This document shows positions 16,365 to 57,406 of a stretch of 64,000 nucleotides of DNA, piece after piece (the stretch's first letter is position 1; every line of letters starts with the position of its first letter). A program made the translations under genes and the position numbers. The notes beneath the pieces are model-generated. The model had not been told where the DNA came from and did not search any database. It worked only from the letters and a program-made list of their open reading frames with translations. This stretch comes from Heptranchias perlo (taxonomy: Eukaryota): assembly GCF_035084215.1 (NCBI RefSeq), contig NC_090346.1, positions 14,198,001 through 14,262,000 of the forward strand, in the 5' to 3' direction.

Positions 16365-17229
16365 TGTTCAAATCCCTCCATGGCCTCGTCCCTCCCTATC
16401 TCTCTAACCTGAGCAGCCCTACAACCCTCCGAGATCTCTGCATTCCTCCAATTCTGGCCTCTTGCATAGAATGTACAGCACAGAAACGGGCCATTCAGCC
16501 CAACAGGTCTATGCCAGCGTTTATACACCACACAAGCCTCCTCCCTCCCCTCTTCATCTTACCCTATCTGCATAACCTTATATTCCATTCTCCCCCATGC
16601 GTTTATTTTGCATCCCCTTAAATACATCAATGCTATTCCCCTCAACTACTCCTTGTGGTAACCATTCTCTGGGTAAAGAAGTTTCTCCTGAATTCCCTAT
16701 TGGATTTATTGGTGACTATCTTATATTTATGGTCCCTAGTTTTGGACACCTCCACAAATGGAAACATCTTCTCTGCGTCTATCCTATCACACCCCGTCAT
16801 AATTTTAAAGACTTCTATCGGGTTTCAGCCTTCTGTTTTCTAGAGAAATAGCCCCAGCCTGTTCAATCTTTACTGATAAGTACAACCTCCCAGTTCTGAT
16901 GTCATCCTTGTAAATCTTTTTTGCATCTTCTCCAGTGCCTCTTTATCCTTTTTATAACATGGAGACCAGAACTTGTGCATCCCCAATTTCCATCGCCCCA
17001 CCATTGGCGGCTGTGCCTTCAGCTGTCTAGACCCTAAGCTCTGGAATTCCCTCCCTAAACCTTTCTGTCTCTCCACCTCTCTCTCCTACGTTAAGACCAT
17101 CCTTAAAACCTACCTCTTTGACCAAGCTTTTGGTCATCTGTCTGAATATCTGCTCGTGTGACTCGGTGTCCAATATTGTCTGTTAATCGCCTTGGGATGT
17201 TTTACTGCGTTAAAGGCGCTATAGAAATG
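16365..17229 (+). mobile_element. L2 3' fragment interrupted by an antisense CR1 3' fragment (~16466-16972)
   Basis: L2 breaks at ggcctcttgcat and resumes at cttgtgcatcccc. Confidence 0.75.
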
Positions 17230-17230
17230 C

Positions 17231-17434
17231 AAATAAAAACAGAAAATGCTGGAAAAGCTCAGCAAGTCAGGCAGTATCTGTGGAGAAAGAAACAGAGTTA
17301 ACATTCTGACGAAAGGTCTTCGACCTGAAACATTAACTCTGTTCCTTTCTCCACAGATGCTGCCTCACTTGCTGAGCTTTTCCAAAATTTCTGTTTTTAT
17401 TTCAGATTTCCAGCATCCACAGTATTTTGCTTTT
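17231..17434 (+). mobile_element. Penelope-like pLTR fold-back insertion (subfamily C) with hammerhead motif
   Basis: Arms ~17231-17301 / ~17333-17402, ~32 nt unpaired tail, TSD gctatagaaatg at 17218-17229 and 17435-17446. Confidence 0.8.
17304..17337 (+). ncRNA. Minimal type I hammerhead ribozyme motif (stem III palindrome mutated)
   Basis: CTGACGA-A-AGGTC/TTC/GACCT-GAAA-CA-TT. Confidence 0.6.
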
Positions 17435-17557
17435 GCTATAGAAATGTAAGTTGTTGAGTCCAGCACAATCAATCAGCTTTTTTTTGTTTTGCATTTGTTG
17501 TTTTGAATTTGAAAAACAAAACTTGAGTCTCCACCTCCTGTTTACTGCCTCCCGCAG

Positions 17558-17748
17558 AGATGCGCCCGCAGTGGTTCGACCTGGACAAGGTCCCATTTGA
17601 CAAGATGTGGCCTGATGACATCATCTGGTTCCCCCTGATGCTTCAGGAGAAGAAGTTCAAGGGTCATTTCAAGTTCGAGGGACACGACACTATTCTGGAC
17701 TACACGCTGCAGGAAGTGGACGATCTGGCAGCTGATGAGGAGTCTTGA
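17558..17748 (+). CDS. NUDT1: NUDT1 last coding exon
   Basis: [47 protein letters not shown]..; cccgcag acceptor; TGA. Confidence 0.96.
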
Positions 17749-19515
17749 TTCTGACACATCACGCTCCGAAATACAGGCTGGAAGGGGAAAAGTTTAACAC
17801 ATTCGCCGCCTGCGGTTGTTGAAACACTGGGAATGTACGTTGTAGCAAAACTGTCATCAACGGCCGTTGCAATTTTCTTTTCTCTCAGTGGAAGAATTAA
17901 GTGCTGCTGGTATTTTTACTAATTTTTTTCGGACATTTAATAGGGGATTTAACCTAGAGTCGCCAACTCTGGTTGGACGTTGGAGGTTTCATCACATGTC
18001 CTTCTGCCTCCAACCACCCCACCCCCATACTCTTATCATCAGTCTCTCAACATATCCGTCCTCGAGGCCCACCGCAATCCCGCGCCAATTCATTACCCGA
18101 TTGGATAATTTTTGACCTGTTGTCAAATGGCCCTTTTCCCCATCTGGTACCCCAGTGTTACTGGATGTTGCCAATCTGATGAGCTCAGATTCTGTTTAAG
18201 TTGAACGATCCCATTTGCTGTAATATAAAATATCTTAGTTTAATTAAAACAAAAGTAGACTGTGATTTGTATCCATGGACACAATTAAATTTGTTTTCTC
18301 TTCTTTACATAACATTGATTTTTTTTGAAGGAGAAAGAAACTGCAAGTACATAAATTTTTATTTAAATTGAGCTACTTTCCCCCCTTGTCCCCTCCACAC
18401 AACCACTGGAAGTGCTGCTCTGGAACTGCACACTAGATGGTGCACAAGAGCAGCTGTGTGTCTGACTCCAGACCCAATGCCAGCAATCTCTCTCTTTTTA
18501 TTCTTCTGAAACTGTGCCAAGTCTTTGCTTAAAAACACAGGAGGCAGAAGTCAGCATGGAATGAGACTGTAAACCCAATCTTTATTATAATAATCTAGGA
18601 ATCTGTTGTGGTGTTCTTAAGGTGGCTCTCCTTGCATTAAACCCCAAATCTTATCATGATGATTTAGGACAGGTGGCGGGGCGGGGGGGGGTTAGTGACA
18701 GCAGAATTTCGAAGAGTAGAACAGAAACAGTATTTCAGTGACCACATGTACTGGTTCATTTCCTCTGTATCCTGTGTCTTTCTCAGGGTGACCGCACCGA
18801 GGAGACCAGAGTTTGATCTCAGCTCTCGAAAGGCATTTACATCTGAGCTTCCCGCAGGAAGTGAAATAAATCCGGCTGGGGGGAGAAGTAAATTTCCTGT
18901 ATCGGTGAAGTGCAGGCGCTGGCTGAATGACCGGAGACAGCCTCCTTGTCTCTGGACTCTCAATCCTCCAGAATGAATGAGGTAGTCTGCATACAGGGGA
19001 GGGAGGAAAGGGGAAGGAAAGCAGAAGAGATTAAAGTAGTTTGACCGCACTCTGGCACAGAGGGTCAAAACTGCAACTTGTGGTGATGAAGCAGGGCATG
19101 TGGGTTTGCAACCACAATCTCCCCACCCCCACCCCCACGTAATGTCCCCGGCCAGGGCATTAAACGCTCCCCCCACGCACGGAATAGCTGTGCCTTGGCC
19201 GTGATCTTGCAGTTCGTGTCGGTGAAGAGCCAGGTGCTCTCTTTGCCTTGGCTACTGGGGGGGGGGGGGGGGGGGAGGGGGGCGAGCCCTACCAGCAAAA
19301 AAAGAGAAAAATTGGGATTTACATTAAAAATAAATCAGTATTGCTGGAAAGAAAATGGTTCAGGCGTGTGTGTGATGCCTGCTATAGTGGAATAGTCCAC
19401 AGATGCTTGCCATCCAGGTGGCACGATTGACCATCTGGAAGAAGTGCTGGAGTTCTATTGGCCTATGGAACCATAGCACAACACCAGTCGGTGTCTTCAG
19501 GTCATATAATTTGAG

Positions 19516-19752
19516 TGTGGAGATGCCGGTGATGGACTGGGGTTGACAATTGTAAACAATTTTACAACACCAAGTTATAGTCCAGCAATTTTATTTTAAA
19601 TTCACAAGCTTTCGGAGATTTTCTCCTTCCTCAGGCAAATGTTTCAAGGAGCTCTTGAAACATTTGCCTGAGGAAGGAGAAAATCTCCGAAAGCTTGTGA
19701 ATTTAAAATAAAATTGCTGGACTATAACTTGGTGTTGTAAAATTGTTTACAA
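19516..19752 (-). mobile_element. Penelope-like pLTR fold-back insertion (subfamily A): perfect 99-bp-arm palindrome plus tail
   Basis: Arms 19550-19648 / 19654-19752; tail 19516-19549; TSD atataatttgag at 19504-19515 and 19753-19764. Confidence 0.88.
19662..19702 (+). ncRNA. Minimal type I hammerhead motif (mirror copy on - strand at ~19600-19640)
   Basis: ATTTGC-CTGAGGA-A-GGAGA/AAA/TCTCC-GAAA-GC-TT-GTGAAT; stem I ATTTGC pairs with GTGAAT. Confidence 0.72.
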
Positions 19753-20699
19753 ATATAATTTGAGGAGAGGGCAGTGGACTGGACCGCACTGCAAGGGTTT
19801 TGTTTACACACAATGTCCACGTTCCACACTTTGATGCATCGCTGATGTAAAATTACCAGTCAGCAGCCCACTTCACATCTGTTCAAAGCCAGATCCTAAA
19901 CTCACAGGACTGTTAAACTGTAGGGAGGAAAAAAAACAGAACAGAATTTCACCCCACCCCATGTGGTGCATTAGGAAAATCTGGGAGAAAGTAGACTGAC
20001 CATCAAATATATTTTCACGGTTACAGTAATAGAAGGTGTGATGATGGTGGGTACTTAAGACAGAATGTTTCACGTGGGACTCCATTTTATCCATAGTTCC
20101 TTCACAAAGGCGTTGGGGAGTTAGATTAGAATGAGCACCATCCATCATATTGTAATATGTATCAGACCTAGAGAGTAATCTCCTTAATTTCAAACATTCT
20201 CCTGAATGTACGGTCACATTAGACAGCAGAAAGACACGAAGTTCATAGAATTGATGAATTATAGAATGGTACAGCACAGGAGGCTGCCATTCGGCCCATC
20301 ATGCCTATGAAGACTCTTTGAAAGAGCTATTCAATTAGTCCCACTCCCCTGCTCTTTTCCCACAACCCTGCAAATTTTTCCTTTTCAAGTATTTATCCAA
20401 TTCCCTTTTGAAAGTTACTATTGAATCTGCTTCCACCGCCCTTTCAGGCGGTGCATTCCAGATCAACATAACTCACGCTTAAAAAAATTCTCCTCAGCTC
20501 CTCTGCTGATGGGGTTTTTTTTTTCTCCAGTCAGGGATTAATTTTGACATTTATCTTCCCCGAAATATTATAAAAAGCTGTGTTTCCGTCTGCAACTTAA
20601 ATAAGTTATTTAAAGGAGCTTCTCTGCTGCTTGCAGATCTGTTGCTCAGATACCACAAGCTGATAATTGTAGTTCTGATCGGAACTAAGTGTCAGTTCC

Positions 20700-21015
20700 T
20701 TTGCAACCTCCTCCACCCCTACAACTCTCCGAGAACTCTGTGTTCCTCCAATTCTCGTCTCTTGCACTTCCCTGATTTTCATCGCTCCACCATTGGTGGC
20801 CTTGTCTTTAGCAGCCTAGACCCTAAACTTCTCCGCCTCTCTACTTCCCTCCTCTCCTTAAGACGCTGCTTAAAACCAAGCTTTTTGGTCACCTGTCCTA
20901 ATATCTCATGAGGCTCGTGTCAAATTTTGTTTGATAATCGCTCTTGCGATATAGTGCCTTTAACGTTTTACTACGTTAAAGGCACTATATAAATGCAAGT
21001 TGTTGTTGTTGTTGA
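20700..21015 (+). mobile_element. L2 3' end
   Basis: Same family as 14430-14770; (gtt)n tail. Confidence 0.75.
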
Positions 21016-21589
21016 TGCCTGTGAACGTTTTGAAACTGTTGGGAGTACTGGTGCAGCCTCTACAATTAGCCCCCGTGTCCCCTCCTCCCCTCCCTATGGA
21101 TTTGGCGAAACAGCCAGGATTAAAGTTCCTGGGCACTGTTCGGTTAGCCCTGCTGAAACACGCTTATGTGGACATTTGAGTTAGGAGTGGGCTCAGTGGT
21201 GATGTCCAGTACAGTTAGCCAACCGACACTCTACCTGGGCTCAAACACACACAATTCCGAGGAGGTACTGAAGGGCTGTCGGTGGCTGAGGAACTGTACC
21301 CCATCACAAACCTGCACCTGGTTTTGGCGGGGGGGAAAGAAAAAGGGCAATTCCAAATATAAAAATTCCTGTATTTCCAGTACCCTAGAGGAAACATTCC
21401 CAATTTTTGTTGCGAGAAAGCCACCTGCTCAAGACGTTAGTAGACCATTCCCTCTTCCCCACGCACACAAAGATCCCTCTTCTGCCAACCTTCAAGTTCT
21501 TCAGGGATTGTGGCTCAGCATCTCGCTGATGACAACTTTTTGAAAAAACACACTGCTGGGAGTTTGGAGATTGGCAGCCAAGGATGTCT

Positions 21590-22260
21590 ATTACCATACA
21601 CACTCTCAATCCCAGACCCTTTTTCCTAGAAATAACTACCTACCTCCTTAAACCCTTCTTCATTCCCTCTACCCTTGCCTCAAACACCAAATGTGATACA
21701 CACGTGGATTTCTTACATTCCAAGGTTGAGACCATCTGTGCCTTTCTCATGCCCACTGCTCCCAACCTCATCTCCCACCCTATCTAACCCAGAGATTATT
21801 GCAGTTTCACACCCACCACCACCTTCTAAAAGTTCATCTTGATCATGAAACGCACCTGCTCTTCAGTCCCAACTCACCCCTACGCTGGCTGAAATAGGCA
21901 TCCTCTCTCTCCCTTTTCAAAACTGCCATCAGCCCCTCCTCAGAAAAACCTACCTTCAACTCATTCATCCTCCCCACGGTCCTTGAACATGTGGCTGCCT
22001 CTCAGCTCCATGCCCATCTCTCCTGAAACTCAACTGAATCCCTCCTCATCCTCCCTGCAGCATTCAATATGTTTGACCATGCCATCCTCCCCTAATGCCC
22101 CCACTTACATCACCCAGCTCCACGGGACTGCCCTTTGCATGGTTCCACACATAGCTATCCAAACACAACCAGCACATCTCCAGCAATGGTTCCATTTGCC
22201 TCCCCCACTCACCTTGGGGTCCCCCAAGGATCTGCCCGTAGCACCTATTCTTTCCAGTTT
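21590..22260 (+). mobile_element. Highly decayed L2-like RT fragment
   Basis: Remnants of SAAFDTVDH (ctgcagcattcaatatgtttgaccat) and GVPQGS (ggggtcccccaaggatct). Confidence 0.5.
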
Positions 22261-22536
22261 ATTTGGTGCCACCCAGCAATAGCAACTACAGGCACGGGGA
22301 GGTGTGAAATCTTTACCTCTTCAGCACTTCACAAGAAGCTTAAGCACCAGCTCTGTGTTGTTCGGTCTTTCTGATAGTTGCATCTGTCCCACAAACTTAG
22401 TGAAGTATTGTTTTTGTTTTATGCTTTTGTATCAGGGCTGTTCTCATTTACTCAGTTGTTAGAAGTCACTTTTTTGTTAAAAAAGATAGAATTTTTGAAC
22501 GCTCAGCTGCTTAGAACAGAGACACCATTCCAGAAG

Positions 22537-22554
22537 TTTATTATATAATTTATT
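22537..22554 (-). terminator. SNX8: Tandem AATAAA polyadenylation signals, probable SNX8 3' end
   Basis: tttatt at 22537-22542 and 22549-22554, GU-rich element downstream on the minus strand, AT/TGTA-rich upstream. Confidence 0.55.
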
Positions 22555-25500: not shown

Positions 25501-25717
25501 GGTACGAGGGAATTTCAGGAATGAAGAGGGGGAGGGAGAGAACAGAAAGGAACCCATACACCACCATTCTGGTCAGCAGAAAAGCCCGTTACTTTGTAGT
25601 TAGAATAAGCATCACGCTGCATATTTTTTTCTGGTGTATCTCACCATGCAAGGACGCACAAGGACAAAGTGACATCTTTCCATGAACTGGAGATGTTCCA
25701 AACTAGCAACCCCAATG

Positions 25718-26396
25718 AAAGTTTCAGCCCCTCCGTGTTCACATTTTACAAGCTTCAGCCGTACATTTGAAAGCAAGACTTGCATTATGACCGCAGGGCA
25801 TCCCAAAGCACTTCACAGCCAATGAAATACTTTTGAAGTGTAGTCACTACTGTAATGTAGGAAATTTGGTTACATTCCAATGTACAGAACACTTGGATAA
25901 ACAAATAAAAAGAATCCTGGACAGAGAACTACTTGCATATGAAGAGGTAACTGGAGATTTTAACCCTTAAACCCCTCCTTCACAGACATGGTTTGAGGTA
26001 AGATTCAAACACTCTTCAGAAAATACTAAAAAGTATGATGGTAAATGATAGTGCCAGTAGCAATAATTACCAGGTTTAAAAATAAAGACAGCCCACGTGT
26101 TCCCTGCCTCCCTTGAATTCAGCGACAAGGACACTAGCCTCCTAACCCATGGCAAACTTAGGGCATTGGTCAACTTTTCCCTTCCAAATCGGGGGAGATT
26201 TGGAGGTCACAAGTTTGACCCGATTCAGAACCAGTTCAAAGAAAAAATAATTAATTAATTACAGTAGTGACTACACTTCAAAAGTATTTAATTGGCTGTG
26301 AAGTGCTTTGGGATGCCCTGCGGTCATAATGCAAGTCTTGCTTTCAAATGTACGGCTGAAGCTTGTAAAATGTGAACACGGAGGGGCTAAAACTTT
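25718..26396. repeat. 139-bp inverted repeat with ~400 bp spacer
   Basis: 25718-25856 is the reverse complement of 26258-26396 with 2 mismatches. Confidence 0.92.
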
Positions 26397-28686
26397 TCCA
26401 ATCCCAAGGGCTCCTTCACCGACACCACTCGTCCCAACCCCCAAGGTCTGCTCACTTCTCAATGATTGGCATCACCGTTTCTCCCTCCCCTCGCTGCCAA
26501 AACACACCAAAAGGCGGAGAGTTTGAACAACCAGCCACAAACCGGAGCATAAAACACGTGAAATAGAGGCGATCGCTTACAGCATGGCAGAAGGCAAATT
26601 AATTTATTTATTTTTCTGCAAAGGGTTGAAAGGAAATTGTCCCTCGTGATTCAGGTCACCTCAGCCAGTTAGTTAGTAGCTTGTACACAGTTTGAAATGC
26701 AATAACTAGCCCCCGGTCAGTTATTGCATTTCAAACCCAGAAAATGATGGAAATACACAACAATCTGTGGAGACTGGTTAACATTCCGGATGGATCCTTT
26801 CTGGATTTGGTTGAAAGGTCTATACTTGAAACATTAACCCATCTTTTCTCTTTTAAAATGCTAAGGAACCCACTGTGTGTGTTTCCAGCACTTTGTTCTT
26901 ATTATGTTTATACACCAGGATATCCCCGTTTTAAAAATCCTTCACATTATTTCAGGTTTTTTTTTAATAATCAAATGGCTTTCGACCAATTCCTACCGAA
27001 AATTCCTGAAATGTATCAAAAAAAGAACGGGTTGAAGTTCCATGTATATATTGGAATTTCCCCATCATGCTTTCAAGGGCCAGTACATCAGCCTCTGTCC
27101 AAGACCCTCGGGGGTGGGGGGGGTGCTAAAGGTATTTCAGATATGTGACTGTTCAAAAGCTGAGCATCCTGCCTTCAGCACTGTCGTGGAAATCTATATG
27201 CAGAGTTTCAAAAAAAAAAGCTGCAACTCCAATTTGGCAAGGAACGCTGTACAATTACTTAGAGTCCGCAGCCAACAATTTAACCCTAACCCGACTCAGC
27301 AGAACCTCCTTGCAGTTAGAGGGAGGGACAAGAAATTAAGCTAAATGTTGCACTACAACACCACATGCTAACTAACACTCCAAGACTCTGCTCAAAAACA
27401 TGATTAGAGACTTGCTTTTTTTTGTTGAACCTTTATAAAATTCATTAGACATGTGGTTCGATAGCTGATGTAACGGAGTGTTTCAATCAGAAGATTATTA
27501 AATGCATCCGCATGGAAACCAGTACTAGGGTACATCCAGTTCTGCTACCAGTACACCTTTAAATCCACGTTGGCTCTGGGTGCAACGAACTCCCCAGGCT
27601 GCACAGACTGCAGTTGGGAGCAAGACCTCCTATTGCAGAGAGTCAATTTTAAAACCAGGCTCCCGTCGGCTTCAAGTAAACCCAGAGTCAACACCCTTGC
27701 TTCCCATCTCTAATCAGATTCCTCAGCTTTATTTACTGGTTTGAGGAGGATTGAAAAGGGATGGAACAAACTTTTTTTAAAAAGCAAGCAATGAGACCGG
27801 CTCTGTCTTATCACAGCCCCAAAGAGACTCGAACATTTGCTGTGAACAGACCGTCCCATCAGGTCTACGGAATCAAGTGTCACCTGGTCCCCCAAGGTTA
27901 GAACCACGCCCAGAGAGGTGGCCGCAATCAACCCGCATCCACACCACAGCTGCTCGAGCAGAACAAACTAGACAGAATAATGTAATCGCTCCCATTATCC
28001 ACAACTGCAACCTCATCAAGCAGTTGGATATCATAAACCACAAATCCTTAGCACTCCACAACTATTCTCCAAAGCGGAATTTACAGTCTTGTAATCACTG
28101 CGGAGTAATTTAAAAAAAAATATCACTTTTTAATAACAAAGCTGACATCCGCACCCAAGGGAGAAACAACCGTGTTATAATCGTTGCAAGATTATTGAGT
28201 GATAACCTGCAGCCAATGACCAGGACGCAAGTTAGAATACACCAGCTCAGTGTAATTTGGATTCCATCCCCACTTTGACAGGAGGAGGTATCCCCACAGC
28301 TGTTTCTCCCCTGATTCAAGAGCACCGATCTAAACTTTCACTTAAATCAAACTAAGACAACTGGCTGATTGTTTCAATGCAGTTATGCTCCCAATTGCAT
28401 CAAACTTTGATCATAAATCCACACTGCAACAGATTAACAGAGAGGGAAATGGCCATCTGGACAGCCCAACATCCCTGCACATAAGAGGCAGGCGATTCAT
28501 CACAAACGGGCGGGCTTTCCAATCGCTAACCTTTGCATAGCCGAGTCTTTGGTAACCAATTTTAAACCAAACGGAGGATAACTCCCTTTTGTAGGGAACA
28601 ATTCTGGAATGTTTTATGGAGGAGAGAAAAAATAAAAACCACTGATCTTCATCCTTGTCCATCGGAAACACGGGGAACGTCACAAG

Positions 28687-28812
28687 TCACTGCGGGAAAA
28701 AGGAGGTCGGACTCTGCCAATTCCCCGGCTGAGGGGACAGAGGGGGTGAGGGCATTCCGTTGGGCAGGAGGCCCCCCAGCTTCGGTTTTAAGTCATTCCA
28801 CACTTCACTCAT
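28687..28812 (-). CDS. SNX8: SNX8 sorting nexin-8 exon 13 (stop)
   Basis: MSEVWNDLKPKLGGLLPNGMPSPPLSPQ..FFPQ*. Confidence 0.92.
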   Translation of the reverse strand: MSEVWNDLKPKLGGLLPNGMPSPPLSPQPGNWQSPTSFFPQ

Positions 28813-32143: not shown

Positions 32144-32189
32144 GTTGTCCAGTGGCGTTCAGAAGTATTTAATTATTTCCTGGACCTAC

Positions 32190-32322: not shown

Positions 32323-34109
32323 CTGAGACACAGGAAAGGGTGAAACAAAACTTAAAGTTACAGGAGTTCGGAGAAACGCATTACAAAAACACCATCCCGA
32401 CTTGGAAATATATCGGCTATTTCTTCATCGTCGCTGGGACAAAATTCCTGGAACTCCCCATGTAACATCACTGTGGGAGCACCTCACCGCACGGACTGCA
32501 GCGGTTCAAGAAGGCAGCTCACAACCACCTTCTTAAGAGCAACTAGGGATGGGCAATAAATGCCGGCCTTGCCAGCGACGCCCACATCCCGAGAATGAAT
32601 ATTGTTTTTAAAACTGTAGGAGTCACGTATATGACTTTCAAAATAGACATCAACTCGTGGTAAACTGTGTATTGAACAGTGACTACACTTCGAAACTACT
32701 TCACTGGATGTAAAGCGCTTTGGGACATCCTGAAAGGCTCTATATAAATGCAAATCCTTTCTTTTTATTTTAATAGTGGCAAAAGCAGGTTAAACTTTTA
32801 AGACAATTGGACCGTGTCTGCCATTTTAAAACCAGTGCATGCAATCCCATTTTTCTCTGCTTCAAATCAGCCCCCTTCAGCCTACAGAAGATTCACGTTC
32901 CATCAGCACAAACATTTCCTTCCTGTGCTGTGCCAGACCCATTTCTCTGCTCACTTCAGCATGGCCCCCGAGCTTCTCCTGGGGAAAGGGGAGGGGGGTG
33001 GGGTGGGCTGCTATTTTGAGTCTTGTTCAGCCGCTGACCCTGCAACTTACAGCTCTCCACAAACCCACTGCCTTCACCTCCTCCAGCGAAGACAAGCAAT
33101 TGCAGCTGTTTCCAATCACACAGCTTGGCGAGAAACTTCCTTTCTATTCTCCCCCCCCCCCCCCCCCCCCCACCTCCCCTCTCTGGGCCGCTCTTTCTTG
33201 GCCCGTTGTGTTGCCACAATCAATCACTGCTCAGGCCTCTGAAATCTGATAGATGAACTACTGCTCACTCCTTCACTGAATGCAGCTCTTGTGGGTTTGA
33301 CCAGGACTTCCTGTTTTCCTCCTTAAGTAATAAGGCAATGGCAATCACAGCTTGCACTGTACCCCTCTTAAAACCTGGCTGGGCCAATAGCTGCCAAAGT
33401 AATATGATAACTAAGAACAAACTTCTATTATACAAGTCCATGCCTTCAACAAGTTTTCAACACTTCGCTTTCTGCCAAACATGCAAGACCCCCACCCCGC
33501 CCCCGATATATCCCAAGCAAGTTGACCCCATTTTCTTCTGTAGGTTTTCCTCCTTCATTGTCTGACCTGACTTTTCAACTGAGGAGGCAGGGCTGCTCCA
33601 TGTGATCCCCAGAACCAGCCACCCAGGCTCAACTCTCCTCTCACTCTGAGGGGAGATGCATCACATCTCTCTGCTCCACATGGATGGGAACGGAGTGCAG
33701 CAGGTTTCGAACTTGTGCCCACCAGCACTCAGTGGCGAGAGTTAGTGCAACGCTACCCGCCACTGATTAACCCTTCAACAGAAAAGAGAGAGAGGAGAGC
33801 AGTGACGAGAGAGGGAGAGGGGAAAATGTGTATTTGAGTCCACAATGAGCTCCCAGATGTCTGCCCAATGAATAGAAGGGAAAGGGATTTTTTAAAAAAG
33901 CATCGCTCCCCTCCCCAGAGACATTTAAAGCTGCAGGGTCTCAGCAGCGGATTGCCTGCCCACCTTCCTGCGTGACGCAGGACTGGAGAGGGCAACAAGG
34001 GCAGGTTTAAAACAAAAATCGCTGAACCACCCACAGAGCCACGTCACGGCAACAGGCAGAAAGAACGCGACGTAACCATGGGCCCGTCGCAGAAAGTCTC
34101 AACACTTGC

Positions 34110-45326: not shown

Positions 45327-45454
45327 CTGGTTTTGTACAGCGGGGGTCAGCTCAGTCCTGTTCAACAGTTTGTGAAAGACACTTCTCCACACTCGGCCCT
45401 CCTGTTTACAGCAAATAGCTTCGTACACTTCTCTGTAATAGGGAGGCACATCAC
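45327..45454 (-). CDS. SNX8: SNX8 exon 2 (N-terminal extension; absent from the ORF track)
   Basis: GDVPPYYREVYEAICCKQEGRVWRSVFHKLLNRTELTPAVQNQ; canonical AG/GT; phases fit. Confidence 0.87.
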
Positions 45455-46829: not shown

Positions 46830-47390
46830 ATTACATAAATTGGGCACATTCTCATTGGAAAAGAGGTTGAGATGTGATATGATTGCTGTTTTTAGGATTC
46901 TAAAGGGACTGGATAATGTAGACCACGACAAGCTGTTTTACCTTGTCCAGAACAGTAGGACCAGAGGACATGGGCTGGGCTTGAAGGGAGGATAAACTAA
47001 TCTGCAGAAATATTATTTGTGAGCGAGTGGTCAATCTATGGAACAGACTCCCCAGAGTGACGGTGGACGCAGTTAGTATTGATTCATGCACATTAGATAG
47101 ATTTTTTTTTAATGAAAATAAAAATTTGGGACATAGTAAATGAGTAATTTAAGACGTGACATGTGGTAAAGTAACATGCTTGGGAGGAACTGGTGACTTT
47201 AGACCTATGGTTCCCAAAGCTCTCCACCACTGGGGTTTTCCAAGTGTCATGTCTGGGTCTGTTGTAGACTAATTGATAGAGATTGATCGCTATAATTAGT
47301 CAATAACTCTATTATCATTGTATCATGCGACTGGCAGGATGGTAGAAGGTGAACTAGATGAACTTTGGTCTTAAAAACCATGTTCCTATA
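46830..47390 (+). mobile_element. CR1-like 3' fragment with a distinct 3' UTR
   Basis: RLRCDMI..RTRGH..WNRLP motifs; related UTR piece at ~50390-50510. Confidence 0.6.
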
Positions 47391-47722
47391 CCCGGCCAGA
47401 GTCAACACCTTCACGACAGGAGGGAGGAAAAGCGGGAGAAAAAAGTGCAGCTGTGACATTAGCAGCCCTCATTGTTAATCTGAGGCACACCACACAATAG
47501 TGAAACCAGCTTTACAAAACAATTCCCATTACTTATACAGACATAAGGAACACTTAAATCCCACCAGCCATTTCCTTTTCATACATGTGCTAAACAAATG
47601 TTTCCTTACCAACCACACTGCAAGAATGAATATTGTCTAAACAATCCATCAATTTCTTTTTAAAAGCCACGAGTCACAACCATAAATATACAAAAAAGGT
47701 TTTTTTTGGCTGCAACAAAACG

Positions 47723-48144
47723 TTCGGGCAGTGCCCACAGCACCACTTCGGGCAGTGCCCACAGCACCACTTCGGGCAGTGCCCACAGCACCACTTCGGG
47801 CAGTGCCCACAGCACCACTTCGGGCAGTGCCCACAGCACCACTTCGGGCAGTGCCCACAGCACCACTTCGGGCAGTGCCCACAGCACCACTTCGGGCAGT
47901 GCCCACAGCACCACTTCGGGCAGTGCCCACAGCACCACTTCGGGCAGTGCCCACAGCACCACTTCGGGCAGTGCCCACAGCACCACTTCGGGCAGTGCCC
48001 ACAGCACCACTTCGGGCAGTGCCCACAGCACCACTTCGGGCAGTGCCCACAGCACCACTTCGGGCAGTGCCCACAGCACCACTTCGGGCAGTGCCCACAG
48101 CACCACTTCGGGCAGTGCCCACAGCACCACTTCGGGCAGTGCCC
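47723..48144. repeat. Perfect 24-bp minisatellite, 17.6 copies
   Basis: ttcgggcagtgcccacagcaccac repeated without visible variants. Confidence 0.97.
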
Positions 48145-48715
48145 TAATCTGCAGGAGACTGCCATGAAACAAAACTGCATTCCCGAAGTGTGATGGAAGT
48201 CAATGGCTTTACAGATAATAAATTGAATATATAGACAGATCATATAACAGCACTTAGACAACACATTTAGCATAGCAAAACATCCCATAGCATGTGGGGG
48301 GGGGGGGAAATGGAAGAAGAAAAAAAGAGGTAAGACATCAAGCACAATGCTTGTACCCAACTTCTAAGTATCTCTGTCATGCCTACAATTATCTGACCTC
48401 ACCTTCTTTTAAAAAGGGAAAAAAATAACATCTTTTCAGGTAAGGAAAGAATATAACAATAAGACACGAGATGTAATGACAATTTTAAGAGTGACAGCAA
48501 ATGTCAGCTTGGCTCAGTGGGTAGCACCCTCACCTCTGAGTCAGGCGGCCGTGGGTTCAAACCCCACTCCAGGACTTGAGCACAGAAATCTAGGCAGACA
48601 CTCCCGAGGGAGTGCTGCACTGTCAGAGATGCTGTCTTTTGGATGAGAAGTTAAACCAAGGCCCTGTCTGCCCTCTCAGGTGGATGTAAAAGATCCCACT
48701 GCATGATTTGAAGAG

Positions 48716-49631
48716 TAAGGAATCTTACAACACCAGGTTATAGTCCAACAAATTTATTTTAAAATCACAAGCTTTCGGAGGTTATCCCCTTCGTCAGATG
48801 AATGAGTGAAAAGGTTCTCAAATCGCACATCTTATACTATGCTGGGACAGCATCACACCAATCAAAAGGTGTCGTTGTTATTCAAACAGGCCAGTCACGG
48901 AGAACAGCACGTCCCAGTACACTGGATATACATTGTGTCAATTACACAGGCAGGCAGAAAGAAACCCAAAATGGCAGAGAGAGAGAATATTAAAAAACAT
49001 AATTTTTTTCCCCCTTTTTGCTGGTGGGGTTACGTGTAGCGTGACATGAACCCAAGATCCCGGTTGAGGCCGTCCTCATGGGTGCGGAACTTGGCTATCA
49101 ACTTCTGCTCGACGATTTTGCGTTGTCGTGTCTCTCTTCGGGTAAGCGTTCTCCAAGGCGGCCTTCGAGACACACGACAACGCAAAATCGTCGAGCAGAA
49201 GTTGATAGCCAAGTTCCGCACCCATGAGGACGGCCTCAACCGGGATCTTGGGTTCATGTCACGCTACACGTAACCCCACCAGCAAAAAGGGGGAAAAAAA
49301 TTATGTTTTTTAATATTCTCTCTCTCTCTCTCTGCCATTTTGGGTTTCTTTCTGCCTGCCTGTGTAATTGACACAATGTATATCCAGTGTACTGGGACGT
49401 GCTGTTCTCCGTGACTGGCCTGTTTGAATAACAACGACACCTTTTGATTGGTGTGATGCTGTCCCAGCATAGTATAAGATATGCGATTTGAGAACCTTTT
49501 CACTCATTCATCTGACGAAGGGGATAACCTCCGAAAGCTTGTGATTTTAAAATAAATTTGTTGGACTATAACCTGGTGTTGTAAGATTCCTTACATTTGT
49601 CCACCCCAGTCCATCACCGGCATCTCCACAT
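48716..49631 (+). mobile_element. Penelope-like element 3' fragment (GIY-YIG C-terminus plus pLTR) with inverted self-copy (subfamily B), inserted in a Deu-SINE
   Basis: Arms ~48715-49131 / ~49172-49594; LRVSVLQGGLRDTRQRKIVEQKLIAKFRTHEDGLNRDLGFM; tail 49595-49631; TSD catgatttgaagag at 48702-48715 and 49632-49645. Confidence 0.9.
49508..49544 (+). ncRNA. Minimal type I hammerhead motif (mirror copy on - strand at 48765-48801)
   Basis: TCAT-CTGACGA-A-GGGG/ATAAC/CTCC-GAAA-GC-TT-GTGA. Confidence 0.75.
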
Positions 49632-50176
49632 CATGATTTGAAGAGGAGCAGGGAATTCTTCCAGTGTCTTTATCCCTCAAACAACATCTCTAAATCAGAT
49701 TATCTGGTCACTTCATATCTCATCACTGGATGTAGGACCTTGCAGTGTGCAAATTGGCTGCTGCGTTTGACAGTTCAAAAAAGTTAATTAATTTGTCATG
49801 AGGAGGTTTGGGACATGAAAGACACGAAGCTTTCTTTCATTGCAACATGCAATGAACAGGAAATTTCAGCACTCAAGAGCGCCTCTTTAAAGCAATTTAA
49901 GGGAGTAAAATGCCATTAACTTTTTCTCCCTGTTCCAATAATATGATGAAATTAAAAGGAGACGTGTCCAGGCCAGCTTGAGAAAAAAGTCCTTTTAAGA
50001 AATTGCACATTGTTTAACACTTGTGAATGGGTCTATAAAAATAAGCTTGCACTACTGTATAAAAGCAGAACTGTGTGCACAAAATTGTGCAATAAGTCGT
50101 GCACAACTTAGTGTAAAAATGGCATAAATCCAAACACTCCACACAACTGCAAGTGGAGAAAATATATATAGAGATT

Positions 50177-50386
50177 CAAAAGCAAAATACTGCGGATGCT
50201 GGAAATCAGAAATAAAAACAGAAAATGCAGGAGAAGCTCAGCAAGTCAGGCAGCATCTGTGGAGAAGGAATTGACATCTTTTAACATCTTCCAGTTCTGA
50301 CGAAAGTTCTTCGACCTGAAACGTTAACTCTGTTTCTTTCTCCACAGATGCTGCCTGACTTGCTGAGCTTCTCCAGCATTTTCTGC
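50177..50386. mobile_element. Penelope-like pLTR fold-back insertion (subfamily C)
   Basis: Tail on the left (reverse complement of the 17403-17434 tail), inverted arms, TSD atatat(a/g)gagatt at 50164-50176 and 50387-50399. Confidence 0.8.
50293..50329 (+). ncRNA. Minimal type I hammerhead motif
   Basis: AGTT-CTGACGA-A-AGTTC/TTC/GACCT-GAAA-CG-TT-AACT; stem I AGTT/AACT; one stem II mismatch. Confidence 0.68.
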
Positions 50387-51106
50387 ATATATGGAGATTG
50401 ATTACTATGTTTAGTCAACCAGTCCATTATCGTTGTATTACGCGACTACCAGGATAGTAGAAAGCGAACTACATGAACCTTGGGTTTTTTTGGTCCAGTA
50501 ATTCCTATGTTCCAATAATAGGTCTATAAACCGTGTTAAATGGTGTATAGGACACGTTATATAAGATGTAAATATAAAATGCACAAAGCGGACAGCGCAA
50601 AGCCCTCGGGAACAAGTTTCCTTTGGACAATTTTCTCACCTCGGGGTTTCGTGTAACTTTGTTGCCTTTTCAACACCGCTACTTTCTGGAGCCGCACCGA
50701 CTGCCACGTTAATGGGAACTCCGGTCAATGGGGGAGTGATGGCGGGGATTACCCCCGGTTAGTAGGGGACTCCCAGCTCACTGGGGGGGGGGGGGAGGGA
50801 GAGTGCAGAGACCGTGGGTGGGGAGAGGAGGTGGGGGGACCCTTGGGTAGAAGTTGGGTCTCCAGCTCGAAGCCCGGCTCCTCACAGCCCCCTCCCTCCC
50901 TCCCTTCCCCTCCTCTCCTCTCCTCTCTCTCGGGTATTTTCATTCATCCCACAGCTCGGTGTAAAAGTGACTCCCCCCCCCCACCCCCGGCGGGAATGAG
51001 AGATTTTTTTCAGCACAAAACCCTCAACTTTAGTTCTTAAAAGTTAGGGAGGAAAATAAAAACTTTTTTTCTCCATGAAGAACAAACTTTTAATTTTCCC
51101 TCTTAC

Positions 51107-51128
51107 CTTCATTAATCTCCCTCTCCAT
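51107..51128 (-). CDS. SNX8: SNX8 exon 1 coding part (MEREINE-G)
   Basis: ATG 51128; AAG|GTAAGA donor; phase 1 joins exon 2 in frame. Confidence 0.78.
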
Positions 51129-51129
51129 G

Positions 51130-52309
51130 TCCGAATCATGTGAGCTCCGGAGCTGCCATGTGATTTCCTCAATAATAAACAGAAGGAAAATAAATAAATA
51201 TCTTTTTGAAATTCTTCCCCCTGTCCCCGGTTGAAACAACAAACTTATTTTTGAGATTTTGTAAAGTTTTTCTTCGATGAGCTTTTCATTATTTTAAAGA
51301 CCCTGTGAAATATTTTCTTTTCTCTCTCTGCCGACGTTTTCACCTCCTCGATTTTTTTTGCCCGCAAAGTATCGGCCCCACGGCGCATGCGCCCCCTGCA
51401 GGTATCGCCTCCGATACCGATCAGCGAGATGGCGAGGAATCGATTGGCCCGCGCGGACCGACTGAAACCCGCGCGGAGTTGACACCGAACATGATCTTCG
51501 TGGGCGCGCCATGCATTTAACGTGACTTTATTGGGATTCTTTTGTTTTATAATTGTCCGGTTTGCAGTAATCGTTTCTTACTTTTATTAAATATCAACAG
51601 TTGATTTATAGTTCGCAGTTACTATTACATTTCTTATTAAATATTAAACAATTTATTTTACAATTGTAAACAATTTTACAACACCAAGTTATAGTCCAGC
51701 AATTTATTTTACAGTTAGTGACAGTTACTACTGCGTTTCAACTTTCTGCACCGAGTATTGAAGTAATCGTTTCAAAGTTTCCAAACTCAACAGGGTGTTT
51801 AATTTGTTGAATGCTACTTTTTTTTTTGAAAAAAAATAACTAAGATCCAAAACAGTCAGGAACAGTCCCAGAGGCCGCATCCTGTTAAAAAGGCGCACTG
51901 TCTGTCACTGAGGGGCAAGAACAAAGCTGTGTTCCCGGCTGCACCATCTGCCAGATGTGAGACTGTTGTTAGGGATTGTCACGTTTGCCTTTCTATTAAT
52001 TTTCACTCTGTCTCGTTCCCTCACTTTTACACATTTCTTAGTCAATTCTGCACTTGTTGCTCAACCACACTTCTCTATTTTATTCTCTTTAATGCACTAA
52101 TTCTCACTCATTAGCTCACACTCACTTAATAGCTCACACTCACTCACGCATTGCCTCACTTGCTCAGTCACACACACTCACTCCGGGTACGCTGTCTGTC
52201 GGCCAGCGGTGTTGTGACTCCCTCCCGTTGCTATAGCCCCGCCGTCAAACACCGGGAGCCGCAGCCAGGCCGCTGGACCCCGGGCCCGGGTAACCCTCGA
52301 GGTGCAGAG
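51130..52309. promoter_or_regulatory. Divergent promoter region SNX8(-)/IQCE(+)
   Basis: Two CpG clusters; NRF1 palindrome GCGCATGCGC 51383-51392 overlapping CTCF-like CCTGCAGGGGGCGC (-); reverse CCAAT ~51443; X-box-like GTTGCTATAGCCCC 52227-52240. Confidence 0.7.
51663..51699 (-). mobile_element. 37-bp tail-less Penelope pLTR fragment (subfamily A)
   Basis: Identical to the arm ends at ~19550 and ~56852; flanked by direct repeat caatttattttaca (51649-51662, 51700-51713). Confidence 0.8.
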
Positions 52310-52351
52310 ATGTTGCTGGCGCTGAGTGACGGGACCGAGGAGGATCTGGGG
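52310..52351 (+). CDS. IQCE: IQCE IQ domain-containing protein E, exon 1
   Basis: MLLALSDGTEEDLG then GTGAGA donor; phase 0 to exon 2. Confidence 0.75.
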
Positions 52352-52454
52352 GTGAGAGGCCGGCACCGGGCTGAGCTACCGGGGACTTCAGTGCGGCACA
52401 GCCCGAGCACCAACCTAAGCCCAGGGCTAAGCTCGCCCTATTCCTCTCCCCTCT

Positions 52455-52830
52455 CTCCCCATCCCTCATTCCCTATGTCCCATCCCCATCCCTCATTCCC
52501 TATGTCCCATCCCCATCCCTCATTCCCTATGTCCCATCCCCATCCCTCATTCCCTAGTCCCTTCCCTCATTCCCTATCCTCCATTCCTCATCCTCATCCC
52601 CATCCCCTACCCCTCATTCCTCATCCCCATCCCCTACCCCTCATTCCTCATCCCCATCCCCTACCCCTCATTCCTCATCCCCATCCCCTACCCCTCATTC
52701 CTCATCCCTATCCCCTACCCCTCATTCCTCATCCATTCCTCCCCCTCATTCCTCATCCATTCCTCCCCCTCATTCCTCATCCCCTATCCCTCATTCCCCT
52801 CCTTCATCCCATCCTCCTCTCCTTATAAAC
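52455..52830. repeat. C/T-rich low-complexity tandem repeats (cctcattcc/catccc)
   Basis: Degenerate 27-30 bp units. Confidence 0.9.
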
Positions 52831-53781
52831 CCCTCTCCTATCTCCTCCATCCCACTTCTCTATGGCTATCCCCCTCCCTCATTCTCTCCCTCCACGTCCC
52901 AGCTCCCCACTCCTTTGGCTCAGATCAGGATCAGATTCATCTCTGCTGCTTTACTTCAGCTACTGTAGTTTGTTGCTGAATTAAACGTGGTGTCTGTTGT
53001 TAGTTGTGAATGTAGATGCCGTCACACAGCAATCAATGGCCAAAAAAAAATGATATTTATATGGCATGGTGTATCTCCAGATCACACTACTGAATAAAAT
53101 GTAGTGAAGGTGGGATTTGGTGGCACAGTAGGGTTGCAAACTGTCCTTTCACCTCCAGGACCTGGTTAGGTTGGGGAGTGAGTGCGTGTTACTGGAGGCA
53201 GTGCAGAGGGTGCTATACTCTGCAGATGGCTGAGATATAAGGGAGTGCTTGATGCTGACATGGGTGGCTGATGTGGAAAGTGCTAAATTCTCCAGCAACA
53301 ACAAACGTAGGGTAATGATTATCAAGGCAGCAGTCCGGAGATTGTTGTGGTGAAAAAATTATATAAAGAAAGAATTTGCATTTATGTAGCACCTTAGGAC
53401 ATCCCAAAGTGCTTTACAGCCAATGAGGTACTTTTGAAGTGTAGTCACTGTTGTAATGTAGGAAACACGGCAGCCAATTTGCGCACAGCAAGATCCCACA
53501 AACAGCAATGAGATATTGATCAGATAATCTGTTTTTTTAGTGATGTTGGTTGAGGGACAAATATTGGCCAGGACACCGGGGAGAACTCCCCTGCCCTTCT
53601 ACGAAATAGAGATATGGGATCTTTTACGTCCACGTGAGGGGGCAGACGAGGCCTCGGTTTAATGTCTCATCCGAAAGATGGCACCTTCGACAGTGCAGCA
53701 CTCCCTCAGCACTGCACTGGGAGTGTCAGCCTAGAGTATGTGCTCAAGTCTCTGGAGTGGGACTTGAACCCACAGCCTTCT

Positions 53782-55887
53782 GGAAGGCACTAAAAAGTGA
53801 AATTCTACGGGTACAATGCAGACACGTCCCCTTAAAGAAAAAGGGTGGCACTGCCAAATTTAGAGCCCCCTGGTTGTCTAGAAGTATAGGGGCAAGATAA
53901 AGAGAAAAAGAAAGCTTATGACTCACATAAAACTAAATACTGCAGAAAGCCTAGAGGAGTATAGAAAGTACAGGGCTGACATAAAAAAGGAAATAAGGAA
54001 AGCAAAGAGAGAGGCATGAACAAATATTAGCTAGTAAGATTAAAGAAAACCCAAAGATGTTTTATCAGTACATTAAGAACAAGAGGATAGCGAAGGAAAA
54101 GGTGGAACCTATCAGGGATGATAAGGGTAACTTGTGTGTAGAAGCAGAGGATGTGGGTAGGGTTTTAAATGAATATTTTGTCTCCATATTCACAAAGGAA
54201 AGGGATGATCCGGACGTAGTAGTTAAAGAGGAGAGGTGTGAAATATTGGATAAGGTAAACATAACGAGAGAGGAAGTACAAGAGGGACTGGAATCCTTGA
54301 AAGTTGATAAGTCACCAGGGCCGGATGGATTGTTTCCTAGGCTATTGAAGGAAGCCAGGGAGGAAATAGCGGATGCTCTGAGGATTGTTTTCCAATCCTC
54401 ACTAGATACAGGGAAGGTACCAGAGGACTGGAAGACTGCAAATGTAGTACCATTGTTTAAAAAGGGTACGAGGGAAAGGCCGAACAATTATAGGCCGGTC
54501 AGTCTTACCTCGGTGGTGGTCAAACTGTTAGAATCAATACTGAGAGATAGGATAAACTGTCACTTGGAAAGGCATGGTTCAATCAGGGCTAGTCAGCATG
54601 GATTTGTTCAGGGAAGGTCATGCCTTACAAATCTGATTGAATTCTTTGAGGAAGTGACAAGGAGGATTGATGAGGGTAGTGCAGTGGATGTTGTCTACAT
54701 TGATTTTAGTAAGGCATTTGACAAGGTCCCACATGGCAGACTGGCCAGAAAGGTAAAAGCCCATGGGATACAGGGAAATGTGGCGAATTGGATCCAAAAT
54801 TGGCTCAGTAACAGGAAACAAAGGATAAAAGTCGATGATGTCTTTGCAAATAGAAATCCGTTTCCAGTGGTGTGCCACAGGGCTCAGTGTTGGGTCCCTT
54901 GCTGTTTGTGGTATATATTAATGATTTGGACTTGAATGTAGGGGGCATGATTGGCAAATTTGCAGACGATACAAAAATTGGCCGTGTAGTTGATAGTGAA
55001 GAGGATAGCTGTAGACTCCAAGAAGATTTCAATGGTTTGGTAGAGTGGGCGGAAAAGTGGCAAATGGAGTTCAACCCGGAGAAGTGTGAGGTAATGCACT
55101 TAGGGAGGGCAAACGGTAAAAGGAAATACACAGTAAACAGGAATATATTGAGAGGGGTAGAGGAAGTGAGAGACCTTGGAGTGCATGTGCACAGGTCCCT
55201 GAAGGTGGCAGTACAGGTAGATAAGGTTGTGAAGAAGGCATATGGAATGCTCTCCGTTATTAGCCGAGGTATAGAATACAAAAGCAGGGATGTAGTGATG
55301 GAACTTTATAAAACGCTGGTAAGGCCACAGCTGGAGTATTGTGCGCAGTTCTGGTCACCACATTACAGAAAGGATGTAATTGCTCTGGAGAGAGTGCAGA
55401 GAAGATTTACAAGAATGTTGCCAGGGCTTGAAAATTGCAGCTACGAGAAGACATTGGATAGGCTGGGGTTGTTTTCCTTGGAGCAGAGGAGGCTGAGGGG
55501 AGACGTGATTGAGGTGTACAAAATTAAGGCCTAGATAGAGTAGACAGGAAGTACCTGTTTCCCCTAGCAGAGAGTTCAAGAACTAGAGGACATAGATTTA
55601 AGCTGATTGGCGGAAGGATTAGAGGGGACATGAAGAAAGACTTTTTTACCCAGAGGGTGATGGGTGTATGGAATTCTCTGCCCAAATTGGTGGTAGAGGC
55701 AGGGACCCTCAACTCTTTTAAAAAGTACCTCGACCTGCGCCTAAAGTGCTGTAAGCTGCAAGGATACGGACCGGGTGCCGGAAGGTGGGATTAGAATGGG
55801 CACCTGGTTGTTCTTTGAGCCGGCGCGGACACGATGGGCTGAATGGCCCCCTTCTGTGCTGTATCTTTTCTATGGTTCTATGGTTCT
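53782..55887 (+). mobile_element. 5'-truncated CR1 LINE (ORF2 RT, few frameshifts) inserted in a Deu-SINE in IQCE intron 1
   Basis: ORFs 54057..54935 and 54872..55534 (YRPVSLTS, DFSKAFDKVPH, PQGSVLGP, FADDTKIG); (ttctatgg)n tail; SINE resumes at actcag. Confidence 0.92.
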
Positions 55888-56005
55888 GACTCAGTGGGAT
55901 TAGTAAATCCCATGTTGGAATGGGACTAGGAAGGGGAGGGAAAGCTGTCTTTCAATGGGATGAAGTTCAGTCCAAACCCAATGTTGTGCTGTTTCTCTGT
56001 TTCAG

Positions 56006-56053
56006 GGAGAGGATGGACTGTCCATCGTTACATATGAATCCGATGTGGAAAAG
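56006..56053 (+). CDS. IQCE: IQCE exon 2
   Basis: GEDGLSIVTYESDVEK, similar to human GDDSLSAVTFDSDVET. Confidence 0.88.
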
Positions 56054-56109
56054 GTAATGTGACCACCTTATGATTTGTACAACTGTGAGAGCTGCCCTTT
56101 GCTCACCTA

Positions 56110-56330
56110 GATTGACACACTCCCAGGGATCATCCACAAATATTAACACACTCTTGGGGATTATCCACAAATACTGACACTCTCCCAGGGATTATCTGCA
56201 AATATTGACATGCTCCCAGGGATCATCTGCAAATATTAACACACTTGGGGATCACCCACAAATATTGACAGACTCTTGGGAATTATCCACAAATATTGAC
56301 ACTCTCCTGGGGATCACCCGCAAATTGAGA
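56110..56330. repeat. ~31-bp degenerate tandem repeat, ~7 copies
   Basis: attgacacactc..gggat(c/t)atccacaaat units. Confidence 0.85.
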
Positions 56331-56851
56331 GCACCTTCTGAAAGATATTGTCAGTTGCCCAAAGGGAAACAATTGTTATCATTGCAGAAAACATTTTTCA
56401 CTGGTATAGGACATAAATATCGTGTTAGTCAAAAAATGCAGAAAAAAGTATGAAATACAGGATTCTCAAGATGGTGTGCTTGCGGCATGTGGTAAGATAG
56501 GGCCCAGGTGGCCAGGGTGCAATCTAATGACATTGCGTGGGATCTCCTCACTCTCCCCGCCCCAGGCCCCAGCATCAACACCTGTGCCTTAACATGACCC
56601 ACAGCAGCAGGTCAGTACTGAAAGTAAGTGGGGTGGCTTGGCTGGTTTGAGCAGTGCTAATTGCGAACATAACCGGGGTAACTACCAGAGAGTCACCCTA
56701 AAGTTTCAGAAGCTTCGAAGGGTACAAATCAGAATTTTAAAAAAGAAAGTCTTGCATTTATATAGCACCTTTCACAACCTCAGGACATTCCAAAGCGCTT
56801 TACAGCCAATGAAGTACTTTTTGAAGTGTAGTCACTGTTGTGATGTAGAAA

Positions 56852-57012
56852 ATTGTAAACAATTTTACAACACCAAGTTATAGTCCAGCAATTTTATTTT
56901 ATTTTACAAAATAAAATTTTATTTTACAAAAATAAAATTGCTGGACTATAACTTGGTGTTGTAAAATTGTTTACAATTGTCAACCCCAGTCCATCACCGG
57001 CATCTCCACATC
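56852..57012 (+). mobile_element. Short Penelope pLTR fold-back insertion (subfamily A, no ribozyme) inside a Deu-SINE
   Basis: ~50-bp arms, AT-rich reiterated centre, tail gtcaaccccagtccatcaccggcatctccacatc; TSD gtgatgtagaaa at 56840-56851 and 57013-57024. Confidence 0.87.
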
Positions 57013-57406
57013 GTGATGTAGAAACGCAGCAGCCAATTTACACACAGCAAGGTTGCACAAACCTCAATCTGATAATGACCAGATAATCTGTTTTAGTGAT
57101 GGTGGTTGAGGGATAAATATTGGCCAGGGCACCGGGGAAACTCCCCTGCTCTCCTTCGAATAGTGGCTGTGTGATCTTTTAGGCCCACCTGAGAGGGCAG
57201 ACAGGGCCTCGGTTTAATTTCTCACCCGAAAGACGTACAGGCACTGAAATGTCCGCCTGGATTATGGGCTCAAGTCTCTGGAGTGGGACCTGAACCAATG
57301 ACTTTCCGATTCAGAGGGGAGAGTGCTACCCGCTGAGCCACAGCAAAATAATAAAGGGAAGTATTTAAAAGTTAATTTACTGACGTACTTTGTTTTCCAT
57401 ATTCAG

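Follow-up and report, generated by a model that had tools for sequence, protein, structure and literature searches.

Six short insertions attributed to Penelope-like elements in the shark Heptranchias perlo and the possible origin of their head-to-head ends

Introduction

How does a retroelement come to leave two copies of its own 3' end head to head in the genome, with an additional tail on only one of them? The question is raised by a 64,000-nt stretch of the genome of the shark Heptranchias perlo (RefSeq assembly GCF_035084215.1, contig NC_090346.1, positions 14,198,001 to 14,262,000 of the forward strand; hereafter the window, in whose numbering all coordinates are given), in which an earlier note had described six insertions as products of a Penelope-like element (PLE). 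The inserts are best explained as independent, heavily 5'-truncated insertions of endonuclease-bearing shark PLEs, with two of the three sequence groups being apparently of the Neptune type, and the best explanation for their paired ends is the joining of complementary DNAs (cDNAs) started from two primers, to which we give a probability of about 0.6.

The architecture in question, an inverted pseudo-long terminal repeat (pLTR) with a one-sided tail between target-site duplications (TSDs), was previously known, as were the two start sites of reverse transcription. Rotifer Penelope elements have inverted pLTRs, a 31-bp tail on one of them and TSDs of 8-10 bp, and self-priming was proposed for them from the palindromes at their junctions (PMC3846280). 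An inverted, 5'-truncated copy with a one-sided tail of 30-40 bp is called typical of PLEs in PMC8557442, where the tail is ascribed to endonuclease resolution of an intermediate. Copies in Drosophila show a 34-37 bp repeat and variable inverted ends (PMC2377424), and the general description is repeated in PMC8969392. In 2024 the purified protein of PAc, a Poseidon element of Anolis carolinensis, was reported to nick and extend both target strands at AT-rich sites, with reverse transcription starting at two internal RNA sites that share no homology with the primer; the stretch enclosed by these sites is the tail, start-site use is the same on either strand, ribozyme cleavage is dispensable and the protein is predicted to dimerise (PMC11167929). 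The steps that follow priming are left open in PMC11167929 and PMC8557442.

Structure and target sites

The inserts are 37 to 916 nt long, consist almost solely of inverted pLTR ends and form three sequence groups: A (A1, 19516-19752; A2, 51663-51699; A3, 56852-57012), B (B1, 48716-49631) and C (C1, 17233-17434; C2, 50177-50386). Five of the six are head-to-head inverted pairs in which exactly one arm is tailed (5/5); A2 is a lone arm. A1 consists, from left to right, of a 34-nt tail (19516-19549, minus strand), the tailed arm (19550-19648, minus), a near-perfect palindromic centre (19649-19653) and the tail-less arm (19654-19752, plus). A3 has the opposite order, with a tail-less arm (56852-56900, minus), a centre (56901-56928), a tailed arm (56929-56977, plus) and a 35-nt tail (56978-57012, plus), and the single tail-less arm of A2 (37 nt) lies on the minus strand. 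In B1 the tail-less arm (48716-49136, minus) is followed by a 30-nt centre (49137-49166), a tailed arm (49167-49593, plus) that holds the end of an open reading frame (ORF) and the 3' untranslated region and pLTR, and a 38-nt tail (49594-49631, plus). C1 comprises a tail-less arm (17233-17305, minus), a centre (17306-17334, plus), a tailed arm (17335-17400, plus) and a 34-nt tail (17401-17434, plus); C2 comprises a 42-nt tail (50177-50218, minus), a tailed arm (50219-50270, minus), a centre (50271-50333, plus) and, continuous with it, a tail-less arm (50334-50385, plus). In the centre of A3 a hairpin tip of 20-21 nt is roughly duplicated and accompanied by an extra C that is absent from the element, a signature of slippage or of templated end-joining.

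The three copies of group A are identical wherever they can be compared, and A and B share 106 of 119 nt (89% DNA identity). The longest match shared by C and A is 9 nt, the two being otherwise dissimilar. The arms of B1 differ from each other at 2 of 421 sites and by one microsatellite slip. No seventh copy was found when the 64-kb window was searched by blastn with five element queries, and the arm motif gave 0 matches in the GTDB genomes, a prokaryotic collection in which none are expected.

All six inserts lie between direct repeats, given here on the plus strand: 17218-17232 and 17435-17449 for C1 (13-15 nt; 12 exact, or 15 with one mismatch), 19504-19515 and 19753-19764 for A1 (12 nt), 48702-48715 and 49632-49645 for B1 (14 nt), 50164-50176 and 50387-50399 for C2 (13 nt, one mismatch), 51649-51662 and 51700-51713 for A2 (14 nt), and 56840-56851 and 57013-57024 for A3 (12 nt). 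When the identical repeat search was run on 1500 random position pairs with matched spacings, the lowest score observed at the inserts was reached by 6 of them. Pooled, the TSDs are 75% AT (60/80 nt), compared with 54% for the window; by eye the six show no alignable nick consensus, and a target motif was dropped as post hoc.

Empty sites were assessed by searching left and right flanks separately and reading their overlap on copies of the host repeats within the window. The result covers three of the six inserts (C1 at the 3' end of its host repeat, B1 and A3 within theirs), A1, A2 and C2 having no spanning paralogue, and it concerns paralogous, not orthologous, sites. The overlap was 15 in 5/5 paired rows for C1, 12 in 6/13 and 11 in 2/13 rows for A3, and 14 in 2/10 and 13 in 2/10 rows for B1; the remaining A3 and B1 rows give other values because the projection crosses gaps, and at the printed sites the motif is never double. 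Since the TSD is single in these paralogous copies, the possibility that the flanking repeats were already double at the empty sites, which the earlier note had named as grounds for refuting its reading, fails for these three inserts. The right flank of C2 (50387-50483) resembles 47276-47368 (80%) from within the TSD outward and the left flank does not, and C2 may be located at the end of a small host repeat.

The inventory in the earlier note holds well: its six starts lie no more than 2 nt from ours, its three subfamilies are the three groups above, its five inverted pairs each have one tailed arm, and its arms of ~50, 99 and ~420 bp measure 49 nt in A3, 99 nt in each arm of A1 and about 421 nt in B1. 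Its description of a 12-14 bp AT-rich direct repeat at each insert is right as to the repeats and their composition, with the range of lengths being 12-15.

Coding evidence and classification

The centre and inner right arm of B1 encode the last 45 residues and the stop codon of a reverse transcriptase (RT) and GIY-YIG endonuclease (EN) ORF (49136-49273, plus strand). This 45-mer matched 21 of 25 candidate proteins at E <= 0.01, the named matches all being from shark RefSeq. The best element protein was P0003 (643 aa, 54-member cluster), with 98% identity; the closest named proteins belong to the XP_067848012.1 cluster (Heptranchias perlo), with others from Mustelus asterias and Scyliorhinus torazame. 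Pfam recognized RVT_1 in P0003 (E 5e-9) and GIY-YIG in P0005 (E 2e-5, above the cut-off), with the relative P0007 below the cut-off; it called no GIY-YIG in P0003 itself, and its sole match to the 45-mer was irrelevant (E 0.11). By eye, P0003 displays a DKG motif, a CX4CxxC linker and, inside its GIY-YIG motif, a pair of cysteines, and a zinc-finger-like linker (CX2-5CxxC) together with a CCHH endonuclease motif was seen in P0003, P0030 and P0052. A CX2-5CxxC linker between RT and EN with CCHH in the EN is the definition of Neptune, the linker being common to Nematis (PMC8557442). Protein searches for the N-terminus of the ORF, meant to show if the tail leads into the start codon, yielded nothing usable, and the window has no full-length copy that could display a partial-tandem pLTR-ORF-pLTR organisation with the tail continuing into the next ORF.

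B1 is thus a PLE copy and, by motif rather than by tree, appears to belong to the Neptune type; group A probably follows it through its 89% DNA identity to B. C1 and C2 contain no coding sequence, and family C is provisionally linked to PLEs by its ribozyme, tail, inversion and TSD. The features shared with endonuclease-bearing PLEs of the Neptune type are the 98% identical C-terminal peptide, a pLTR with a minimal hammerhead, head-to-head inversion, a one-sided tail of 30-40 nt and a long, variable TSD, which at 12-15 nt exceeds the 8-10 nt reported for rotifer PLEs (PMC3846280). The Penelope-like origin that had been recognized from the letters alone is supported by the GIY-YIG C-terminal peptide, the hammerheads and the long, variable TSDs. 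A description of these shark families was not found in the literature searched.

In shark RefSeq isoforms the endonuclease C-terminus also occurs fused to host gene models (P0002, P0019, P0020 and P0030, involving Ku80, FAM210B, FAM204A and a kinase-domain gene), which reflects either exonisation or annotation read-through.

Hammerhead ribozymes and end points

A strict descriptor of the minimal type I hammerhead (core, stem II of at least 4 pairs, palindromic stem III, and stem I) gave four matches in the window, one for each arm of A1 (cores 19634-19606 and 19668-19696) and of B1 (48797-48769 and 49512-49540), compared with 0 matches in 199 of 200 dinucleotide shuffles and 1 in the other. 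These arms, in which the earlier note had overlooked the motif, are predicted to carry minimal hammerheads; of the 4 stem I positions at which A and B differ, 3 remain paired. A relaxed pattern gave nine matches, of which three are unrelated, and added decayed cores in the centres of C1 (missed by the strict descriptor, with stem II intact and mutations in the palindrome of stem III) and C2 (50297-50325). Minimal hammerheads with a palindromic stem III are typical of PLE pLTRs (PMC4209133). Rfam returned no hammerhead among 27 matches at E up to 10, its hairpin matches being microRNA models, all below gathering scores. Other repeat families of the window (e.g., at 32389, 42614, 60612 and 62364) contained no hammerhead motif and did not resemble the arms.

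The predicted ribozyme cut fixes the sense strand and provides a coordinate ruler for the ends. On this ruler the tail-less outer ends lie at +56 (A1), +57 (A2), +57 (A3), +53 (B1), +67 (C1) and +60 (C2), the last two being 7 nt apart, and the tailed ends at +90 and +92 in A, +91 in B, and +100 and about +101 in C. The inner ends are more scattered: -42/-48 in A1, +9/+9 in A3, -373/-405 in B1, about -6/-30 in C1 and about +9/-50 in C2, with A2 ending at +21, or at about +8 when the nucleotides that match its TSD are included. The common end point just after a small hairpin, which the earlier note had seen in A and B, therefore stands for A and not for B, where the end lies 2 nt within the hairpin. 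Comparison of A with B gives one compensatory pair in this hairpin, too little to prove a structure; folding 3' of the ribozyme was significant in A3 (z -3.3) and not in the other five of six sequences (z -0.15 to -1.5).

Two further observations concern the junctions. Inner ends at +8/+9 occur in 3/6 events from two unrelated families (56900/56929, 51700 and 50270), a post hoc grouping in which A2 is tied to target homology. At the C1 junction (17300-17310) one arm contributes the stem III and cut-site region and the other the 5' strand of stem I; the two meet with 2-3 nt of microhomology and are adjacent in the folded ribozyme.

Formation of the inverted ends

In the reading that we favor, the GIY-YIG endonuclease would nick both strands of AT-rich DNA 12-15 nt apart, and each nicked 3' end would prime reverse transcription on the element RNA. 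The tailed arm would come from a distal start site, about +90 to +101 relative to the hammerhead cut, and the tail-less arm from a proximal one (+53 to +67); both cDNAs would stop early, their 3' ends would be joined via microhomology of 0-3 nt, a short palindrome or filler, and fill-in would leave a head-to-head repeat between TSDs. Most of this had been proposed in the earlier note and was already published: two sites ~35 nt apart and priming by both nicked strands are documented in vitro for a relative, PAc, although the placement of one site at the RNA end is not borne out there, both being internal in PMC11167929. The shark inserts resemble PAc in the two start sites that bound the tail, the AT-rich targets, the lack of primer-template homology and the hammerhead upstream, and a named PAc start site lies ~82-92 nt past the ribozyme cut (derived from the numbers in PMC11167929), near the tail ends of A and B at +90 to +92. 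PAc belongs to another clade, however, and the accessible part of PMC11167929 does not say that inverted pairs arise from the action of both primers in a single event; nor was a statement that the cDNAs of two primers are joined head-to-head in one event found for PLEs in the literature searched. What we infer here is that a single event uses both primers, each at its own site, and that their products are then joined; the proposal in the earlier note that the two cDNAs join is compatible with the window, in which every pair is single-tailed, and a fold-back of one cDNA also fits.

Three features support two primers. The presence of one tail in 5/5 pairs has p = 0.03 if arms chose their sites independently at 50:50, the lone arm A2 ends at the same +57 point without an inverted partner, and in C2 the tail-less arm extends further inward than its partner. 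In addition, the outer junctions share 0-3 nt with the target in 9/9 scorable junctions, a low homology that resembles the homology-free start of PAc (PMC11167929). The right-hand TSD of A2 resembles the upstream sequence of the element itself in 12/13 nt, which makes A2 a deletion remnant or else an ordinary truncation that arose through annealing to the target overhang.

Several points weigh on the other side. The paired inner ends are close (0, 6, 24, 32 and 59 nt), with 27/945 random pairings as good (26% of 105 random pairings if B1 is left out), and the centres of A1 and A3 are near-perfect palindromes; both features would follow from fold-back and are not expected from two independent cDNAs. 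The tail of B1 and that of C1 sit on the longer arm, again as fold-back predicts, the C2 centre and the single arm of A2 could be later deletions, start-site use by PAc shows no strand bias in vitro (PMC11167929), and the sample consists of six events only.

A stricter form of two-primer joining would reconcile both sets of facts. In an obligate, coupled integration, which we regard as possible though doubtful, a dimeric RT-endonuclease complex would use a single RNA twice, from the proximal start on one strand and, with strand displacement, from the distal start on the other, and a shared break or obstacle would halt both cDNAs. Such an obstacle might be the hammerhead fold, as suggested by the inner ends at +8/+9. 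If this is true, every inverted insert should have exactly one tail and two arms that end at a common break or obstacle on the RNA.

The alternative that survives best is fold-back or self-priming, in which one nick primes a cDNA at the distal site, and the 3' end of this cDNA folds on a short inverted repeat and copies itself. The copy would then end at the tail boundary, through a stop or a cut, and be attached to the second target strand. It has precedents in the self-priming proposed in PMC3846280 and, for the tail, in the endonuclease resolution of an intermediate in PMC8557442, and it accounts for the matched inner ends, the palindromic centres and the longer tailed arm in two of the three informative pairs (B1 and C1). 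The asymmetry of C2 is opposite: because its tail-less arm reaches furthest inward, simple fold-back of the tailed cDNA cannot produce it. Moreover, the partnerless arm of A2 terminates at the proximal point, the microhomology at the B1 junction is at most 2 nt, and the proximal site is a genuine start of reverse transcription in vitro for PAc (PMC11167929), so that a separate mechanism of stopping is unneeded. We therefore consider fold-back unlikely, though it has to be taken seriously.

Secondary deletion is a much poorer candidate. It holds that longer PLE insertions, composed of an inverted pLTR, the element and a second pLTR, later lost their centres by cruciform or microhomology deletion; a full form with an inverted pLTR, a one-sided 31-bp tail and a TSD of 9-10 bp is described in PMC3846280, and the A3 centre bears a secondary rearrangement. 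This leaves the origin of the inverted ends unexplained, and little time was available for it, because the A copies are identical and the arms of B1 have so few differences. Perfect palindromes, furthermore, are substrates and not products of cruciform and microhomology deletions, which counts against the idea.

Amplification as units in the manner of miniature inverted-repeat transposable elements (MITEs) or fold-back DNA transposons, with which the inserts share small size, non-coding content, long terminal inverted repeats and TSDs, is barely conceivable and is rejected for all six, given that their ends are asymmetric by 34-42 nt, TSD length is not fixed (12-15), A1 and A3 have no common centre, nor do C1 and C2, the tail of C1 belongs to the arm with the ribozyme and that of C2 to the opposite arm, both C2 arms have one base where both C1 arms have another, and B carries the end of an RT and GIY-YIG ORF. 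The asymmetric ends, variable TSDs, differing centres, flipped tail side and the base shared by both arms within C1 and within C2 show that each insert arose independently, and with the single-copy paralogous empty sites they uphold the view in the earlier note that these are not MITEs.

Twin priming of the L1 type is likewise rejected. In L1, both nicked target strands prime on the element RNA and an inversion between TSDs results, one primer being used at the poly(A) tail and the other upstream in the middle of the RNA, so that the pieces do not duplicate each other (review PMC9148063, on Ostertag and Kazazian 2001). The likeness lies in the inversion between TSDs and in the use of both nicked strands as primers; in the shark inserts, by contrast, the starts are no more than about 35 nt apart and in 5/5 pairs both arms are copies of one segment, instead of representing different, non-overlapping parts of the RNA. 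Non-LTR retrozymes (bioRxiv 10.64898/2026.07.22.740005), which are non-coding, derived from PLE pLTRs, equipped with a type I hammerhead and reported in one cartilaginous fish, are also rejected: they form head-to-tail tandem arrays, whereas the shark inserts are head-to-head pairs with TSDs and unique centres, and direct (head-to-tail) tandem copies of the arms were not found in the window.

Genomic context

The window is a repeat-rich vertebrate region. It includes an FtsJ-type methyltransferase exon at 4870-5319 (minus strand) and the last exon of NUDT1/MTH1 at 17557-17745 (plus strand), with C1 located 120 nt before the latter; none of the exons identified in the window is disrupted by an insert. 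Decayed fragments of long interspersed nuclear elements with RT domains (7354-10212, 53997-55659 and others) are accompanied by several dispersed families of many-copy short repeats, and a perfect 24-nt minisatellite array of about 17-18 units occupies 47627-48240. A 139-nt inverted host duplication (25718-25856 and 26258-26396, 137 identical, 401 nt apart) includes part of a host repeat and has no PLE sequence and no clear TSD, so that inverted templated copies also arise without a PLE. A short imperfect palindrome at 26690-26736 (47 nt, 85%) is unrelated to the PLE arms.

Significance

The inserts largely illustrate known biology rather than new biology. Hairpin copies of this kind are open to mis-annotation as MITEs or as microRNA hairpins. 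What remains of value is the chance to test cleanly, across the genome, how PLEs come by their head-to-head ends: short, young inserts record both start points and the central junction in less than 250 nt, and a genome-wide count could therefore separate two-primer joining from fold-back without an experiment. If the coupled form of two-primer joining is true, the origin of head-to-head PLE ends would be settled, and the many short, young copies in sharks would be a ready dataset for its proof.

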